Assembly: GCA_013115125.1 (NCBI GenBank)
Contig: JABANN010000297.1
Coordinates: forward strand, 1 to 41,543
Length of the DNA: 41,543 nt
Reading direction: 5' to 3'
From: Perkinsus olseni
Taxonomy: Eukaryota
Program-made: the position numbers and the translations under genes
The notes under the pieces: model-generated
What the model was told of the DNA's origin: nothing
The model's database searches: none
What the model saw: the letters and a program-made list of their open reading frames with translations, nothing else
Part shown: positions 20,279 through 40,323 of the stretch, one piece after another
How positions within the stretch are numbered: position 1 is the stretch's first letter
Layout of the letters: the number at the start of each line of letters is the position of its first letter

Positions 20279-23200
20279 CTAGTCCCTCACTGCAAAGCGA
20301 CTGTGTTGCTGCTGAGGATGATGCTGTTGATGATGAGGGTGAGGATGCTGACCATTGAGAGCCCCTGATAGTAGTAGTGATGCTGGCGATGATGACAACG
20401 ATGCCACTGTGCTCGGCGAGGCCGCTGTGCCTCGACGAGATCCTAAAGGACGTCGTGGACATGAGTCTTCACTGGGTGCTGCGCTGGCTCACTGGGCAGG
20501 GGATGAGGGGCCACAGCAGACTTCTCAATTGGGTCACTCTCCACCCAGACTGTGAACCAATCGACATCAGGATGAGGTGGGCATGGAGGAATGTCCCTGA
20601 TCTCATCCTCGCGAACACCTGACAACAATAGCCCAACGACTCACAGGGCGACAGCCACTAAAGGAGCAACTGTAGTGGATGATACAAACACGACATCACC
20701 ATGACACTCGATGAATCGACGACAGAGAAGGCAAAGCCCTCAGGGCACCGAGTGTATATACGGGTGGGGCAGTGGTGAGGCAGGGGCATGACACTACTGC
20801 TACTACTACCAATTTTGATGTTGGTGCGTTCATGACTGTAGACGAGTAAATTCTGGCAGAGTGCTCCGAGACGGAATAGTAAACCGCTGAGACGATACCA
20901 CGGGAAGGTAATGCACCTACAGACCAGGCGGCGGTGGTCCCCATCAAGATGCTACCGGTACCCCCTACGTGCAGAGAGTGCTACGCAGTTCCTTCCTCTC
21001 ACGCAGTACAACGATTTGGAAGACAGCAACAACGAAGTAGAGGAGGGCCGTGAAGACCATAGTCATCATCAATAGGCCAATCCAATCTCTCAATAGTAAG
21101 CCGCAGAGGAGGAAGACTCGGAGCCAATCGAGAACGATAGCCAGTAACTGAGAAGCATCGAAATGATGGTGCTGATAACAATGCTCATGGTAGTGGCTGA
21201 CCTCCTGCAGGAAGTATGGCTTCAAAGCTAGGCTAGGGACATGACAAAATGATGCAGGATGGAATACTTCAAACAAGTAGGAGAATGTCTTCTTGTGAGA
21301 TGTTAATTCCCACGACTTCACACGTTGACGGAACAGAACCTGTCATCACGCAATACTAACGAGGCAGTAGTAAGGATGCCTGTAGCGGTACCGTCCAAGA
21401 ATCAGGGGCGTAAGTAGGGACGATGGCCTGGGCGCAGGATATGATCTTAGAACTGTCTCTTTTACGGAGTAGGGAGAGGCCCATGTACCTTCGAACAACG
21501 AGCTAACAGACCGCTGCCGATAAGAGGCCCTGCATATCCTCGCCATTGAAGACCGTGTCATGCTCATAGAAAACCTCATCTAGAGCTTCTCGGTCCCAGA
21601 GGGCGATGGCACCATGGCATGATAAACACCTGAATACTCCTCAACTGTTCACCATCTTCATCAGTCGTGAGGTTGGAAGGGCGATACCTCGACATGGTTG
21701 CCTGTAGTAACTTATGGACAGCAGCCATCTTATACTCGACATCTTGGCAGCGCACAAGGAGGTTAGGCCGTCCATCCGGTGATGCCGCTGTGATCGGGAA
21801 GTGCACCTGGAGAGGGCCTTTCATGAAAGCATTGCGTGGAGGCCGAGCTGACAGCTTTGATGGTATGGTCCTTCTCAAGATGCTCCTGCGGGATGTGGAG
21901 ATCTGGTGGTAGTGGGACATCATCGTCAATAATGACTGCGAACCTGGCACTAGAACTCCCTCCTCCGCAACGGCAGACCGTGGGCCTACCTAAAGTCCTT
22001 GACCCTGGAGTACCGGGAAAGAAATGGTATCCAGTATTTGTTGCACCAATAGAAAGCGAAGGTCTTATTGCCCTCTGGAATGTACAAGTAATTAATATCG
22101 GGATGAACCTATACCGAAACTTCCCCGTGAAGCAGTGTGAAGTACTGCTTACCTGCTGAACGGCCCATTGTGTGTGGTCCTGCGGATGGAGGCTGGGACC
22201 ATTGTCGCACACGAAGATGTGCCCAGGAGGGAAGACCATCATAGCAGATCGTAGAGTGGTAGTAAAAGTATCAAAGCGCTCAGCGGTCATCGTAGACATA
22301 TGACAGGCGACCATTAGACAACAGTCTCTGGCCATTGATTGGTTCATGACCTGATGGTAACGGGGAGAGTTATAATAATGAAGCCATTGTCGCATGGCCG
22401 GGCGTACAAAGTCGGCTGTGACGGTATCTTCGCTGCTGTCCCGACTGAGGTTGAGGTCTACTGCATCGCCACCATGCATATCCACTCGAGGAGTGTCCAT
22501 CGCATCCTCATCTTCATACCCACGGCCCTCCTCTAGGGCTCCATTAGTAACCTCATCAACAGCTATCTTCATAGCAACCTGAGAAGAATCTTCGCTCCAT
22601 CATGGTCAGTGATAGTGAACTCACTTGAAGATGACGGCTGAAGACCGGCGCCCTAGGCCACTTGACGACGCAGCAGGCGATGAGGAAGAGGAAGGTATCC
22701 AGCATGACATCGATGAATATGAGGAGGTCGAGCCAGGAAGACATACGCCAAATTGATATGTTCCCAAAAAGGGCGTCCAGTGCCTACGAGGCGAAGATAA
22801 ACCGGGGCTTTGAGTGCACCCGTGCTACCGTTCGTTTGGTCTTAACTTGTTGTGGCGAGAAGTAAATAATAAGATATAGTGTGACGATGATGAGGAGTAG
22901 GAAGAATATGTTGAGGAGAACAGTACGGAAGCGTTGCTTGGTGAGGAACGTGGTGAGCTTCTGTTCCCTCAGCTCCTTCCACTGTCTCAGCCTCCTTCTC
23001 CAGGCGTTACTCTCATAACGCTTCCTAGGGTCTCTCGATCGTAGCTGTGATCTCCTGCGTAAACCAGAATAGAGTACATGCACCAATGACGATAGCGCGA
23101 CCTACACTTTGCTGTCCATCAGGCCAGCACTGCCTCCCAAGCTATCATAGGGCCCCGAGCCTCGGGGCGTGGCAGAGTGGTGGCCAGATGACGAGGTATT

Positions 23201-34251: not shown

Positions 34252-34439
34252 GCGCCTTTGTCAATTATATATGAGACGACGATCCATGATGGTGACACGA
34301 CAGTGATGGTGGTTATACACCATCATATGGGTGGTTAGTAGCCGTAGTAAGTGCATTCCGTTTCAGAGTTTGTCAGTGATAAGAGCGGATTGGGTTCAGT
34401 GTCGAGGCTCAATCACGGAAAAACTCCTCAGGTTTTTTG

Positions 34440-37400
34440 ATGACTCCTATTGTTGCCGGGCGTTGTCGTCATACTCGTCGAAGACGTTCGTCACTTCCCT
34501 ACAGTCTGCTGGTCTTGGCTGTATTCCTATATGTTGTCATCCAGCTCAGTACACCAGCCCTCTTCGTGCTGCCTCGCCCGGCAGTGCCACAGTCTGCCGT
34601 GTCGAACACTTACGGGAGGCCTCATGCTACCAATCTTAGGGCTCGGCACAGTGCTACTGTGGGCAGAACGCCTAGTGCGTATCCGACCTCTCTCCTGGTC
34701 CTCGGTATGGGGGTTGCTGCATTGGTGTCCGTAGCGATGGCGAAGAGACGAGGGGGAAAGAATGTCAGCCGTCGTGCTGCTGTTGAGGCCACCCCTTCGA
34801 TTCCGGCCACCTCAGCGCCATTGCCTAGGAACCCAGCCGTGAGGGTGGGTAGGCTGAGTAGCGGCCTGCAGTATGTTATTCAAGACCACAAGGATGTTGG
34901 GGGAAAGGCAGTCCATGCCACCCTAGAGGTGCATGTTGGCAGCCGAGATGAGAGTGCCGGGGAGCAAGGTATGGCCCATCTAGTGGAGCACGCTGCCTTC
35001 ATGGGGTGTGACCGGAGGAGGGCAGCACTGGCAGCGAAGGGAGGCCAGAGCAATGCGGAGACCGACTATCATCATGTTAGCTTCGAGACTGTCATACCTA
35101 ACGCGGCTGGCCTTGGGGACGCTCTGGGGCTGCTGAGGCAGGCGGGGTTCGAGGCTGAGTTGAATAAGGATGTGGTGGAGAGGGAGAGGTTGGTAGTACT
35201 TCGGGAGAAGGCTCAGATGGATACACATGACTACGCCCAGGAGTGTGCTGCGCTGGAGGCTCTGCATAGTGAGAACGTCTTGGGCACGCAGTTCCCTATT
35301 GGAAGCTCTCAGCTTGTACAGGGATGGACGGTGAAGCAGGTGAAGGACTTCTATAAGAAGTGGTTCAGGCCGGCCAACAGCACGCTGTTCATCGTCGGGG
35401 ATCTTGCTGGCCGCGATGAGGACGTTATATCGAAAATTGAGCAAACCTTTGGCGATGTGGAGGTTGGTGTCGCCCCTGTCCGCAAGCCAGTGCACCATGT
35501 ATGGTCACCTAAGGCCCCGACCATCCGTATTGACCCTCAGTCGGAGGAGTCATCGGTAGGCCGCATAATGCTGATGTCGAAGCAGCCAGTACATCCATTG
35601 CGGACACGGTTGGACATGAGGAGGTATGTGGCCGAGGACATAGCTATACGGGCGGTGGCATCGAGACTGCAGAGGGCTAGCAGGGCTTTGGAAGTGCCAG
35701 TGGTAGCGGAGGCCGACTGTCTGGATAGTATCAGGGAGGGCTGTAGGGTTACTAGTATCCGGGTTGGAGGTACAACTGTCGACGGAGCGAAGCGTGGAGT
35801 GAGTCAGGCAGCGAGGGTTGTGGAGGATGTGTGCTCCAGCCCATTGGATGAGGAGGAGGTGATGGCCCTTGGACAGGAGTATGTTAAAGGCTTAGCTGAC
35901 ATGAAGGAGGCTAGCAGTGCAGAGCAGCTACAGATGTTGATGGACCTCCTGTTATTGGGCCATACGCCAGTGGCACCCGCTGATGCGACGAAGTTGGCTG
36001 AAGAGACCGTGAGGGAGGTGACCCCTGCTGAGGTCATGGAAGGGGCTCGAAGAGTGTTCGGTTGCCTGCTAGATGAGAGGCTTAGGGTTTACGCTACTGG
36101 TCGAGGATGGACTCAATCCTCCATTTTGGAGGCCATCGATAGTGGCGTGAGAGACGAGGGACCAAGGCCGCTGCCCTTAGCGCTCCATTGCCATCATCTT
36201 TTGGATCATCAGGAGGCCTCGTCGCCCCGTGTACTCGATATAGACAAGAATGGCGAAGTCTGCAGTACCCGCTTGGCGACTGGAGTGAAGGTGCGGGTGG
36301 TCCAGTCATCAGGAGAGCCTGGCAACTATCGTATACGTGTACGGTGGCCGGGTGGGGCCTTGAAGGCTAGAAGCTCGGCCCATGCCGCCGTTGCCGGCCA
36401 TGTCCTGGCTTCCCATTGGCAGAAGGCTGATGGCAGCGTTGATGCCTTCATGAAGGAGCACTCTCTCAGCGAGCCTGTGATGGGCCAATCGCTTGAGTGG
36501 ACCGAGATTACTGTGTCTGGGGCCAAGGGCGTGGAGGCCGCGTTGGAATTCGTGAAGTTTGTGCTACAAACGCAGGTAGAGGCCGGCGCTGAAGGGTCGG
36601 CACATGTTGCCAAGGCCTTGGCGAGTCTCGAGGCCTTAGAGTCTGGTCGTGAGCTGTCTATTGAGCGAGAGGGGCTTGATAGGCTGGTGGGAAGCATGTA
36701 CCCCCACACTGATGTCCTCAGAGAGCCCAAGGGGTTGGGCCAGGTCCGGGAGGTCACGCGGGAGTTGTCTTGGGGTGATGACTCTCTGCTGGCGATCGAC
36801 ATGGTAGGAGACTTCAGCAGCCCTCAGGAGGCCTTTGCGGTAGCTGACAAGTTCTTTGGGGCTTCGAAGATGATGGAAGGTGAGCCCAAGGCAGAGGCAG
36901 CCCCAACACTGCCCAGCGTAGCCGACTCGTGGACTGATGCACCACAGAGGGTGAGCATGCCGAAGGTGGCCAATGACCGGGCCTTGGTCCTGCTAGGAGG
37001 AGGTATGGAGAAGCGACCGGAATGGCAGGTAGCGTTGCTGGCTGAAGAGATCCTGAATGCAGCACTGTTCAAGAGGCTGAGAGAAGAGGCCCGACTAACG
37101 TACGATGCCCGTGGCTCTTTCTTGGTCCCTGATCGGCCTAATACGGGTACTGGCCATTGGACGGTGGCAGTCCACACTGACCCAGCTGATGCTACTCAAT
37201 GCGCGATGGAGGCTCTACGGGTAGTAAGAGAGCAGAGAATGGTAGACGATTCATCCTTAGCCCGAGCGAAAGCAAGTGTGATGGGCCAGCTATCTCAACT
37301 GCAGACAGCCAATGCCTTTATCATGGCGATGTTGGACAAGCCTGGTGGTCTGGAGCGAATACAGCAGGTCTCCGCAGAGGAGGTGGAGGCTGTGTTCAAA

Positions 37401-37472
37401 GCTATGCGTGCTGGGCCTCGGTCGACCCATGTTGTCGTGGCCGAAGGCGAGGCTAGGAATGTTTCTACGTAA
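34440..37472 (+). CDS. SPP: Plastid stromal processing peptidase-like M16 zinc metallopeptidase, intronless, with an N-terminal plastid-targeting presequence
   Basis: A single ORF of about 1010 aa with the inverted zincin motif HLVEH. SPP-like blocks include LEVHVGSRDE, SNAETDYHHVSF, LHSENVLGTQFPIG, WFRPANSTLFIVGD, PVHHVWS and a C-terminal LFKRLREEARLTY. The first ATG is at 34440. Confidence 0.88.
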   Translation: MTPIVAGRCRHTRRRRSSLPYSLLVLAVFLYVVIQLSTPALFVLPRPAVPQSAVSNTYGRPHATNLRARHSATVGRTPSAYPTSLLVLGMGVAALVSVAMAKRRGGKNVSRRAAVEATPSIPATSAPLPRNPAVRVGRLSSGLQYVIQDHKDVGGKAVHATLEVHVGSRDESAGEQGMAHLVEHAAFMGCDRRRAALAAKGGQSNAETDYHHVSFETVIPNAAGLGDALGLLRQAGFEAELNKDVVERERLVVLREKAQMDTHDYAQECAALEALHSENVLGTQFPIGSSQLVQGWTVKQVKDFYKKWFRPANSTLFIVGDLAGRDEDVISKIEQTFGDVEVGVAPVRKPVHHVWSPKAPTIRIDPQSEESSVGRIMLMSKQPVHPLRTRLDMRRYVAEDIAIRAVASRLQRASRALEVPVVAEADCLDSIREGCRVTSIRVGGTTVDGAKRGVSQAARVVEDVCSSPLDEEEVMALGQEYVKGLADMKEASSAEQLQMLMDLLLLGHTPVAPADATKLAEETVREVTPAEVMEGARRVFGCLLDERLRVYATGRGWTQSSILEAIDSGVRDEGPRPLPLALHCHHLLDHQEASSPRVLDIDKNGEVCSTRLATGVKVRVVQSSGEPGNYRIRVRWPGGALKARSSAHAAVAGHVLASHWQKADGSVDAFMKEHSLSEPVMGQSLEWTEITVSGAKGVEAALEFVKFVLQTQVEAGAEGSAHVAKALASLEALESGRELSIEREGLDRLVGSMYPHTDVLREPKGLGQVREVTRELSWGDDSLLAIDMVGDFSSPQEAFAVADKFFGASKMMEGEPKAEAAPTLPSVADSWTDAPQRVSMPKVANDRALVLLGGGMEKRPEWQVALLAEEILNAALFKRLREEARLTYDARGSFLVPDRPNTGTGHWTVAVHTDPADATQCAMEALRVVREQRMVDDSSLARAKASVMGQLSQLQTANAFIMAMLDKPGGLERIQQVSAEEVEAVFKAMRAGPRSTHVVVAEGEARNVST

Positions 37473-38033
37473 GACTATAGGCCTAGCGTTGGGGAGGGGA
37501 GGTGCCTAGTAGCTCTGTCTCTGTCTAGTTCGCTTTTCCACTATAGCGCCACCGAAGAAGAAAGGAGCCGAGGCTATTGTGAAGCCCAAGGCTAAAGCCA
37601 AGGGTAAGGCGAAGGGTAAGGCCCGAGCCAAGGCGGCTGCGACAGCGAGCGCTGAAGTGGTAAGAGGTATTGCTGCCTGCGGTATCTCGTAGATCTTTAT
37701 ACAGGACCCTCAAGAGGCCGATGTGTTGATAGAAGCTTGCAAGAGCTGAGGTGTGTTCAAGCGAAGCGCGGCAGCTCTTGCCGGGGCTCTAGAGGAGCGT
37801 CGGCCAGGGACTACCGTGGTAGTGAATGAGAACGGTCAAGCCAAGCCGAGGAAGGGGACTTTCGCCGTCAAGGTGCCACGTCGATGGCCGTTTCGCTCCG
37901 CTATGCTGTTGTGGTGTAGGTACACGGGGGAAAGGAGGTCCTGGCTTTGGTAGCGATGCCACGCCCCTTCAAGAACCTTCGCGAGTTGGACATGGAGGAA
38001 GCGGCCACGCAAGTGGTAGAGGCTTTGAAGTGA
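37459..38033 (+). CDS. SELENOH: Selenoprotein H-like (Rdx / thioredoxin-like fold, CxxU) with an in-frame UGA read as Sec at 37747-37749
   Basis: Exons (37459-37468 tentative), 37547-37659, 37705-37872 and 37920-38033 give ...PPKKKGAEAIVKPKAKAKGKAKGKARAK...ADVLIEACKSUGVFKRSAAALAGALEERRPGTTVVVNENGQAKPRKGTFAVKVHGGKEVLALVAMPRPFKNLRELDMEEAATQVVEALK*. This matches the SelH pattern (VxIExCxSU...AAAL...KPRxGxFxV) and has a basic N-terminus. Confidence 0.9.
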
Positions 38034-38063
38034 GGATGGCCTCCGGTAAAGGTCCTATCTATA

Positions 38064-38121
38064 AGAGCGAATGACATCGCGTCCACAAAACCATCTGGCT
38101 GGACGTTGATTGATATGCTTT
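38064..38121 (+). promoter_or_regulatory. Eukaryotic SECIS element (type II-like) in the 3' UTR of the SelH-like gene
   Basis: Helix I is AGAGC/GCTTT. The core is ATGAC (38071-38075) ... TGAT (38111-38114). Helix II is ATCGCGTCCA/TGGACGTTGAT. Apical unpaired AAAA lies at 38087-38090, followed by a CC(A)/(T)GG mini-stem. Confidence 0.88.
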
Positions 38122-38303
38122 CGAGGGAGGATACTACGCAAGGCTCATATCTATCACCAATTCAAATGAATTTTTAATAACGTGCTGCTAGGGTTGTACT
38201 GGGTCGTGTTAGAGTAATGCTGACTGATCACTAGCCATTACAAGGGACAGGCATTGTGTCGGCATCTTTGCTGAATAGATTGTTTCTTCGGTTATTCAGT
38301 TTG

Positions 38304-39398
38304 ATGAGTACTAATCCTATGAATCCTATCAATGCCTTCGCCTTCGCCTTACTCAAGGAGCTCGAACCGGAGCCTTCCTCTAATTACGTTACGAATACTG
38401 TAGTGAGTTCGCTGTCGCTCTTCCAGACCATGGCTATTGCGGCATATGGTGCCCACGAGGGTAAGACTCTCGACGGCTTGCTCAACGTCACCCATGCTGA
38501 AGACCTGGAACAGCTTTGTGATGTCAGCCGTGACTTCAGTCGCTCCGGCGGCGACCGTGATGTGCTGCTGTCCGCCAATGCTGTCTGGTCGCCTTACCTC
38601 ACGGAGTCCTTCATAGACGATGTCAAGACTAATCTGAATGCAGAAGTGTTCCCTGAGGTACCCAATAAGGACCTCATCAATGCCTGGGTTGACCGGAAGA
38701 CGAAGGGCATGATTCAAAACTTGCTCTCAGAGGATCCGCCCGATGGTGCAACTCTGGTCAATGCTGTACATTTTAAAGAACAGTGGAGGACAGCGTTCAT
38801 GAAAACTTTCACTCGAGAGGCCGATTTCCACGCCCGGAAAGATGAGCCACCTGTGAAGGTTGAGATGATGGTCGCTGCGAGCCCCTATGGTGATACTAGA
38901 CAGAAAGGCTTTGATTATTACGCCGATGATAAAGTGCAGGTGGCAGAGATCCCTTATGCTCATGATGACTATGATGCTCTGATAGCCTTGCCGGCTGAGG
39001 GGGTTTCCGTTGATAATTTCGTGGCGCGTGACTTTGACACCTGGTGTGAGGGGATGCAGCATAATAAGGAGGGTAGTATTTCATTTCCCAAGTTCAAGGC
39101 GGAGTATGGCGTGCGGGATATGACGAATGAGTTCGAGCGTATGGGTTTGGTGTTGGATGGAGACTACAGTAAGATGGGCCCGGGGCTGCGGGTCGGCTCG
39201 GTGCTTCACAAGGCGCTTATGAAAGTAGACGAGGAGGGTACCGAGGCCGCAGCAGCATCAGCGATGGTGATGCTAACGGCGATGCCTATCGATCCTCCCT
39301 TCCGTATGGTGTGCAACAGGCCCTTCATGTTCATAGTGAGGCACAAGCCCACTAACAGCATCGTTTTCATTGCTAAGATTAGGAATCCGACGGTTTAA
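38304..39398 (+). CDS. Serpin (serine protease inhibitor family I4), intronless, probably inhibitory and intracellular
   Basis: Motifs include NTVVSSLS, INAWVDRKTKGMI, LVNAVHFKEQW, PKFK, VLHKALMKVDEEGTEAAAAS (intact hinge) and MVCNRPFMFIVRH (serpin signature). There is no signal peptide from the ATG at 38304. Confidence 0.95.
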   Translation: MSTNPMNPINAFAFALLKELEPEPSSNYVTNTVVSSLSLFQTMAIAAYGAHEGKTLDGLLNVTHAEDLEQLCDVSRDFSRSGGDRDVLLSANAVWSPYLTESFIDDVKTNLNAEVFPEVPNKDLINAWVDRKTKGMIQNLLSEDPPDGATLVNAVHFKEQWRTAFMKTFTREADFHARKDEPPVKVEMMVAASPYGDTRQKGFDYYADDKVQVAEIPYAHDDYDALIALPAEGVSVDNFVARDFDTWCEGMQHNKEGSISFPKFKAEYGVRDMTNEFERMGLVLDGDYSKMGPGLRVGSVLHKALMKVDEEGTEAAAASAMVMLTAMPIDPPFRMVCNRPFMFIVRHKPTNSIVFIAKIRNPTV

Positions 39399-39536: not shown

Positions 39537-40323
39537 ATGTCCAGTCCTGACCATAATGACACGTCGGTCTCAGACCCCTCGTTGAGGCCTGCTGCTCATG
39601 AGGGAGAGCCTCGTAGCGCTATGGACGTGGCAGACGACCTCCTCAACCACCTCACAGCCACACAGTTGCTCTACACCCTGCATCGAGTTCACCATCTCTG
39701 CTATCATGTAGTGAAGGGCAAGCTAGAGGTAGGATGCGCTAGCTCGGACATGATTTTGTCTTCAGGCCCCGGAGAAGGCGAGGGAGCTCCTTAATGAGGA
39801 CCCTAACCTGTCACTTGCGCTCATCCACGCACACTACCTTCTGGGGGTCACCACAGGAGAGCGTCTGCTGCCTCTCACTGCGGATGAAGTAAGGGGCTCG
39901 TTAGCGTTACCAAGTAGGCAGTAGTATCTATCTTAGGTGAGCCTAGCGAAGGACCGGCTGCAGCAGATCAGGACCCAGGGTGCAGTGGCAGCTTCGGAGT
40001 CTGCAGTCCAGCCAATGCCCTTCTACAGTCAGCAGGCTCCTGGCACGACTGAACTTCAAACAGTGGTAGTATACTGCAGCCCTCGGATAACTTTTCATGT
40101 AACGCCTTATCGCCTGTAGCTCCCGTCGGCCGCCCCGGTGCATCCTACGGACGATAAGCTCGATCATCTAGCAAGGGAGATATCCGAGCTCACTGGCTCG
40201 AAAATCGCCGCTGATACCGAGAGTATCCTGGCCGCGTTAGGGGACTTGTCGCCGGAGCAGATCGGCTCTTTACCCGAGGAGGTCCAGGCGCAGGTGCTGG
40301 AACTCTTGCAAGGGGCTGAGTAA
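39537..40323 (+). CDS. CstF-64/Rna15-like protein with hinge and C-terminal domains but no visible RRM
   Basis: The hinge-like segment is LLNHLTATQLLYTLHRVHHLCYH/APEKARELLNEDPNLSLALIHAHYLLG. The C-terminal segment ILAALGDLSPEQIGSLPEEVQAQVLELL resembles CSTF_C. About four exons. Confidence 0.7.

Follow-up and report, generated by a model that had tools for sequence, protein, structure and literature searches.

Whether an in-frame TGA in a short, spliced gene is a stop codon or is read as selenocysteine (Sec) is the question raised by one locus in a 41,543-nt stretch of Perkinsus olseni DNA (contig JABANN010000297.1), which was analysed as a whole ("the window") and to which all positions below refer. 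On its forward strand, positions 37738-37752 read TGC AAG AGC TGA GGT, that is C-K-S-UGA-G, with the in-frame TGA at 37747-37749; an earlier note, made from the sequence alone, had pointed to this C-K-S-U-G reading, and the sequence bears it out. That note had further proposed a gene resembling selenoprotein H (SelH), with a CxxU redox motif, two short introns, and a hairpin like a Sec insertion sequence (SECIS) in the 3' untranslated region (UTR). This core proposal has held up against family profiles, against homologues that share a Sec/Cys column at the UGA, and against spliced RNA that keeps the TGA. We therefore consider it very probable that the locus is a SelH selenoprotein gene whose internal UGA encodes selenocysteine.

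A spliced transcript that retains the in-frame UGA

Evidence from RNA came from contigs of two RNA-Seq runs recorded as metatranscriptomic (X8 and X9), placed on positions 37000-38600; two raw-read runs (X21 and X23) had 0 reads on this interval and hence provide no test. One X9 contig (record 8; 481 nt, depth 10.1, 0 differing letters) spans 37620-38191 with both introns removed, so that the hairpin is found on a single spliced RNA together with both the TGA at 37747-37749 and the stop TGA (38032-38034). The first of these TGAs is likewise covered in X8 (record 3), and both splice joints are found in X8 contigs as well, so that the two introns read from the sequence (37660-37704 and 37873-37919) and the retention of the UGA in RNA are both confirmed. 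Given these contigs and their limits, the gene has a spliced transcript of its own, from which the TGA is neither edited nor spliced out. The features that make up the body of the gene are as follows, with exon numbers that count a putative micro-exon at 37459-37468 (see "The 5' end") as the first.

37547-37659, + strand: exon encoding a Lys/Ala-rich N-terminal region, covered by X8 record 3 over 37558-37658 and by X9 record 8 over 37620-37658, and aligning with the basic N-terminal part of the profile from plant SelH
37660-37704, + strand: intron of 45 nt (GT..AG), its joint found in one contig each of X8 and X9
37705-37872, + strand: exon 3, with the redox motif C-K-S-U at 37738-37749; matches to TIGR02174 and Pfam Rdx, RNA contigs with 0 other letters
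37747-37749, + strand: in-frame TGA, very probably read as selenocysteine; second-Cys column of plant SelH, TGA or TGC in homologues, kept in RNA contigs
37873-37919, + strand: intron of 47 nt (GT..AG), its joint found in one contig each of X8 and X9
37920-38034, + strand: exon 4, the last coding exon, closed by the stop codon TGA (38032-38034); profile alignment gapless across the exon junction

Past the UGA the frame stays open for 82 codons, a stretch that spans a spliced intron. A list of open reading frames (ORFs) under the standard code holds just one ORF there, of 66 aa (37753-37953), in line with the earlier note's remark that only this fragment would be called. Three P. olseni "hypothetical proteins" share 96-100% identity with translated exon 3, and since the identity is this high, the window is, as judged from protein sequence, from P. 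olseni or a very close relative.

Membership of the SelH family

To place the spliced protein we relied mainly on a plant set collected with the SelH-like plant protein P0008 as query, which yielded 303 proteins at E ≤ 0.001, many of which carry the name "selenoprotein H" in their sources. A hidden Markov model (HMM) built from 119 of the best 120 of these SelH-family proteins gave the spliced protein from Perkinsus a score of 90.4 bits (E 1.6e-26), with positions 48-174 of the 181 in the profile aligned; among 2000 shuffled controls the highest score was 9.4 bits, which places the similarity far beyond chance. From the basic N-terminal region onwards, the alignment extends to the C-terminus, with no gap at the junction of exons 3 and 4. 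The UGA is matched there to the second Cys of the CxxC motif of plants (CKSU against CKQC), in a column at which every plant protein in the alignment has Cys except one that lacks the motif (P0117). The alignment to SelH proteins that had been suggested as a check thus placed U in the Sec/Cys column.

Searches with curated profiles and structures, as well as an all-against-all search of representatives, returned related matches. Exon 3 alone (56 aa, the only exon submitted) matched the NCBIfam model TIGR02174 (SelT/SelW/SelH; 24.9 bits, cut-off 34.2, E 1.9e-5) and Pfam Rdx (PF10262; 14.9 bits, cut-off 22.6, E 0.032), with both matches covering profile positions 2-46 of 74. The sole match in a sequence search of the PDB was 2ljk (C17orf37/MIEN1, E 0.65), with its CxxC aligned to CKSU, and the all-against-all search gave 5 matches at E ≤ 0.001, including P0008 and a P. 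chesapeaki hypothetical protein (P0009). A thioredoxin-like fold is predicted from the profile matches.

Dikiy et al. reportedly grouped SelT, SelW, SelH and Rdx12 into one Rdx family in 2007, and the features of the Perkinsus protein point to SelH among these. Its likeness to plant "selenoprotein H" (CKQC) takes in the entire domain as well as the basic N-terminal region, although the plant proteins differ in being a Cys form without a SECIS, in having longer N-terminal linkers, and in sharing 35-43% identity with exon 3. By contrast, the Rdx likeness between exon 3 and MIEN1/C17orf37 (Rdx12) is weak and confined to the first 35-50 residues, and the C-terminal KPRKG..RPF..LD part of the Perkinsus protein fits the SelH profile and not MIEN1/C17orf37; this part is presumably foreign to SelW and SelT as well. 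With the Sec form of SELENOH in animals and algae, the Perkinsus protein would share a length of about 120-135 aa, a basic N-terminus, a CxxU motif in a thioredoxin-like domain, a single Sec, the C-terminal KPR[KR]G..F and RPF..L..LD part, and a 3'-UTR SECIS, but the Perkinsus hairpin scores under the Rfam threshold. By analogy, the product is probably a nuclear thiol-redox protein, a location suggested by the Lys-rich N-terminus and by what is seen for animal SelH.

The UGA column in environmental homologues

A scan of metagenome contigs provided 19 homologous loci (L001-L019), which merge into 16 distinct ones once identical copies (L009, L010 and L011; L012 and L015) are joined, and which match the spliced protein at 40-55% identity over 50-115 aa. 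In 15 of the 16 distinct homologues the Perkinsus UGA is aligned with a TGA codon, mostly in an IEACKSU context, and in the remaining one (L016) with TGC. The scan was not biased towards TGA, since its pattern covered another part of the protein and its query had Cys at this codon. A column that alternates between Sec and Cys in this way is, at the level of sequence, the classical signature of a selenoprotein family.

This column also bears on the idea that Cys or Trp, and hence no selenium, is inserted at the UGA through near-cognate read-through or a local change of the code. We found nothing that speaks specifically for such decoding; a UGA also ends the same ORF (38032-38034), the long ORFs next to it can be read through with the standard code, and the site coincides with the Sec/Cys column of a classical selenoprotein family and is followed by a SECIS-like hairpin. 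We accordingly regard it as extremely unlikely.

Some of the homologous loci have features of their own. The Cys-form (CKQC) homologue (L016:418-1512) has a very long N-terminal extension of Lys/Ala/Pro/Glu-rich repeats. In another (L018:20-1195), the SelH frame runs without TAA or TAG back into an upstream gene that is ribosomal-protein-like as judged by translation, with only an in-frame TGA between. In a third (L004:775-899), the SelH gene is followed by G+C-rich repeated units resembling GGTACCGG, which draw several spurious Rfam matches to miRNA and sRNA families.

A SECIS-like hairpin in the 3' UTR

Downstream of the stop codon, the transcript contains a hairpin with the layout of a form-2 SECIS.

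38035-38191, + strand: 3' UTR, at least to 38191, where X9 record 8 ends; contigs of the next gene start at 38298 and 38329
38064-38121, + strand: SECIS-like element, form 2; Rfam SECIS_1 19.5 bits, best of 2 descriptor matches in the window

Its lower helix pairs 38064-38069 with 38116-38121 (6 bp), the quartet consists of AUGA (38071-38074) and GA (38112-38113), and the upper helix pairs 38076-38085 with 38100-38110 (10 bp, one bulge). At the apex, an unpaired AAAA (38087-38090) lies 12 nt after the quartet, next to a mini-stem of 2 bp (38091-38098). All the hallmarks with which the earlier note had described the hairpin, namely an AUGA/GA quartet, a helix of about 10 bp, an apical AA and a lower helix, are thus present. 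The ATGA begins at 38071, 36 nt past the last base of the stop, and in the spliced mRNA 274 nt separate the Sec UGA from the AUGA downstream of it. A descriptor of our own (ATGA, AA at 10-13 nt, closing helix, GA, lower helix) found 2 sites over the whole window on both strands, 38064-38121 being the better, and this is also the sole [AG]TGA..AA..GA candidate in 38000-38320. The other match (21249-21300, + strand) is weaker (8 pairs, -8.5 kcal/mol) and probably due to chance. In a search of 1 kb against Rfam, the sole match of any family was SECIS_1, at 38070-38120 on the + strand (19.5 bits, E 0.88).

Comparable elements occur behind the environmental genes. For this comparison we used the 14 distinct TGA-bearing homologues with a readable stop, leaving out duplicates (L010, L011 and L015), a locus that runs off its contig (L014), and the Cys form (L016). 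With the descriptor set at the values of the Perkinsus hairpin, a site was found 42-193 nt past the stop in 8 of these 14, against 0 sites on either strand of the remaining 42,058 nt of the homologue loci. The environmental protist SelH genes (IEACKSU) hence share with Perkinsus the local motif and, in those 8, an AUGA..AAA..GA hairpin past the stop, while their helices are longer and more G+C-rich than that of the Perkinsus element. In a covariance-model alignment of five environmental elements, which was fitted to the structure and so favours the outcome, 13 of 17 pairs were changed on both sides and 94% of cells were paired; none of 500 shuffles reached this level, and slid controls were 30-49% paired. 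A plain MAFFT alignment of 8 elements was dropped as inconsistent with the structure.

The spacing of the two UGAs relative to the hairpin is also informative. Work on mammalian SECIS spacing reportedly indicates that a UGA so near to a SECIS is not recoded, and the 36-nt spacing of the terminal UGA would therefore fit its role as a stop. Three environmental homologues (L003, L017 and L018) also terminate in TGA, with the SECIS-like site 42-57 nt further on.

Weighing the selenocysteine reading

Several results weigh against this reading, most of them concerning the hairpin. Its 19.5 bits stay below the Rfam gathering score of 35 for SECIS_1 (RF00031), and an Rfam search of the whole window at E ≤ 10 shows no SECIS match. 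The folding energy is unremarkable (RNAfold z -1.58, with 15 of 200 shuffles folding as well), and 6 of 50 simulated 41.5-kb windows hold a descriptor match at least as good on either strand. Covariance models built from the environmental SelH SECIS-like elements (R1 from a single seed, R2 from 4 sequences, R3 from 5) do not list the Perkinsus hairpin in searches at E ≤ 10, and the hairpin scores 1.2 bits with R3 in a search of 221 nt. Beyond the hairpin, ARAGORN found no tRNA in the 41.5-kb window, the curated cut-offs of TIGR02174 and PF10262 were both missed (with one exon as the query), the frame from the ATG at 37459 with just two introns meets TAG TAG at 37507-37512, and no in-frame ATG occurs from there to the UGA.

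From the fold energies and simulated windows, it follows that the hairpin taken alone is not beyond chance, but it gains weight from its place within a 3' UTR (about 160-260 nt long) and on the matching strand. The covariance models do recover environmental elements (L004, L017 and L006 with R1; L019 at 19.3 bits with R2), and their miss of the Perkinsus hairpin is read as over-fitting to one G+C-rich clade, yet it is a failed test. As for Rfam, SECIS_1 gave no match at E ≤ 10 in any of the 19 environmental loci, and in particular missed six environmental SelH elements (two sets of three loci, 3.7-3.9 kb); because of these misses, a sub-threshold score appears normal for such protist SelH SECIS. 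The proposal of a matching SECIS element therefore stands as regards layout, which passes the descriptor, and falls short as regards the curated threshold. A SECIS function is suggested by the position, strand and layout of the hairpin, and by the fact that a SelH mRNA with a UGA would require such an element, rather than by a model score.

These considerations lead to the possibility that the gene is a true SelH selenoprotein gene with its SECIS elsewhere than at 38064-38121, or of an unusual form. The low Rfam score, the miss by our own covariance models and the unexceptional stability would all agree with a hairpin that is no SECIS, and 6 of the 14 homologues lack a canonical descriptor site, which indicates that protist SelH SECIS can escape simple patterns. 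However, the 3' UTR is short (RNA reaches 38191 and that of the next gene is present by 38298) and offers a single candidate in 38000-38320, the Rfam score means little when SECIS_1 fails on six environmental elements that show covariation, and a distance of 36 nt from the stop is close to that of the nearest homologue sites (42-57 nt). A SECIS outside this hairpin thus seems quite improbable.

A more radical view takes the UGA as a real stop, so that the locus is a decaying SelH pseudogene or encodes a peptide of only about 54 aa, with the downstream similarity as a relic. Such a view could draw on the lack of a tRNA in the window, the want of an evident start codon, and the treatment of the UGA as unreadable by public gene callers. 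It is difficult to reconcile with 82 open codons past the UGA, across a correctly spliced intron and at 40-55% identity to homologues, with an mRNA expressed and spliced in two runs, with the same TGA in 15 of 16 distinct homologues, and with a downstream part that other P. olseni isolates share at 96-100% and that can be recognised in P. chesapeaki. We consider a genuine stop at this position very improbable, and selenocysteine remains the preferred reading of the UGA.

This reading requires a Sec system, and the published record offers some support. Supplement S8 of PMC4561486 lists "SPS.1.selenocysteine.Perkinsus_marinus", and passages of the same paper describe SPS2, in its Sec or Cys form, as perfectly correlated with selenoprotein presence in eukaryotes and as a marker of Sec use, and report SPS2 in scattered Alveolata. 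Perkinsus does not appear in the supplements of the Secmarker paper. The predicted P. marinus Sec-SPS supports the Sec trait for the genus, by analogy, rather than for the P. olseni genome, in which the machinery is presumed.

The 5' end

The earlier note had derived a protein of about 134 aa from the two introns, of which the introns were upheld while the two-intron frame from 37459 was not, as it is interrupted by the TAG TAG. Removal of one extra intron of 78 nt (37469-37546) gives exactly 134 aa, which leads to the following provisional features.

37459-37468, + strand: putative first coding micro-exon (ATG plus 7 nt), provisional, overlapping the last codons of the M16 peptidase ORF; proposed as the nearest ATG that can be spliced into frame
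37469-37546, + strand: putative first intron, 78 nt (GTAAGA..TATAG), its donor hexamer identical to that of the confirmed intron at 37660

Alternative introns that keep the frame are 37469-37528 and 37502-37546 (45 nt, GTGCCT..AG), the latter with a donor that resembles the confirmed GTGCCA donor. Altogether, 248 combinations of ATG and GT..AG are formally open, and for this reason sequence by itself cannot fix the start. Every RNA-supported exon lacks an in-frame AUG, and a search with a 49-aa in-frame reference for short predicted ORFs that would reveal the N-terminus found none.

In the unspliced genome, positions 37542-37562 encode I-A-P-P-K-K-K, at the place where the homologues from plants and the environment start with MAPKK or MPPKK, which makes a non-AUG start a live alternative. 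Other P. olseni gene models likewise have I at the place of 37542, which could be an AUA start or a lost ATG. Perkinsus is known to trans-splice a leader onto its mRNAs. Although rather unlikely in our view, the SelH mRNA may accordingly use no conventional start, relying on the AUA at 37542 or on a trans-spliced leader instead of the ATG of the 37459 micro-exon. If an AUA start were used together with UGA recoding, the selenoprotein would be made by two non-standard decoding events.

Public gene models and neighbouring genes

As the earlier note had anticipated of standard gene callers, public models leave out the UGA stretch in three P. olseni proteins and one P. chesapeaki protein. The P. 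olseni models (P0003, P0004 and P0005; 371, 1471 and 870 aa) join the C-terminus of a peptidase, pieces of SelH, and a serpin (34437-39398), and all three omit the stretch with the UGA. The P. chesapeaki model (P0009) keeps the residues just ahead of the motif and the whole part behind it, and swaps the motif region for unrelated residues. P0009 is a syntenic orthologue, in which a SelH-like part is followed by a serpin-like N-terminus.

Upstream of the SelH gene lies a 1011-aa ORF (34437-37472) with Peptidase_M16 and M16_C domains, and downstream a 380-aa serpin ORF (38256-39398). Contigs of the peptidase stop at 37416 and 37465, those of the serpin start at 38298 and 38329, and RNA contig coverage is nil at 37466-37557 and 38192-38297. 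Were the fused models right, a single M16 peptidase-SelH-serpin protein would be made and the UGA stretch would be an intron. Three P. olseni models are indeed built in this manner, but the contigs cover the UGA stretch continuously and none of their joints removes it, the models need splice sites seen in no contig, and peptidase, SelH and serpin lie on separate contigs with gaps in coverage between them. The three separate transcripts contradict the fused models, to which we attach hardly any credence.

Just past the serpin gene (39631-39700, - strand), a weak match resembling a C/D-box snoRNA (SNORD43, 23.3 bits, E 1.1) is below its gathering score and at the level of chance.

Proposed route from gene to selenoprotein

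Taken as a selenoprotein gene, the locus would work as follows. The SELENOH gene (Rdx/thioredoxin-like) is transcribed apart from the M16 peptidase upstream and the serpin downstream, and at least two short introns are removed, which leaves an mRNA with the in-frame UGA in C-K-S-U. Eukaryotic Sec decoding relies on SBP2, EFSec and tRNA-Sec together with a SECIS in the 3' UTR, and here the form-2 SECIS-like hairpin, 274 nt downstream, would direct the insertion of selenocysteine at the UGA. The second UGA, 36 nt ahead of the hairpin core, would terminate the protein. We infer a product of about 130 aa, in which a Lys/Ala-rich N-terminal tail would precede a CxxU thioredoxin-like domain.

Significance for Perkinsus and the SelH family

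A full-text literature search returned no paper that names SelH in Perkinsus or Perkinsozoa, with the proviso that supplement files 1 and 2 of PMC4561486, which were outside that search, might list it. The searchable literature likewise holds no named Perkinsus selenoprotein gene, the predicted P. marinus Sec-SPS being found only in the supplement of PMC4561486. Passages of PMC7539508 place SELENOH among the Sec proteins with the broadest distribution across algae, and given that Sec-containing SELENOH is this widespread, the high interest assigned to the locus by the earlier note appears too great. The gene is an ordinary, well-supported addition to a known family, combined with a correction of annotation, and its biology is as expected, SELENOH being one of the commonest Sec proteins across aquatic eukaryotes. 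The correction concerns a concrete error, as the Sec codon is cut out in the three P. olseni models and in that of P. chesapeaki, and the P. olseni models have three unrelated genes chained together. Overall, the value of the finding lies in this correction and in the catalogue of selenoproteomes rather than in a new principle: it adds a selenoprotein, very probably a SelH, to a parasite of farmed molluscs, and provides transcript-level evidence for UGA recoding in Perkinsus.

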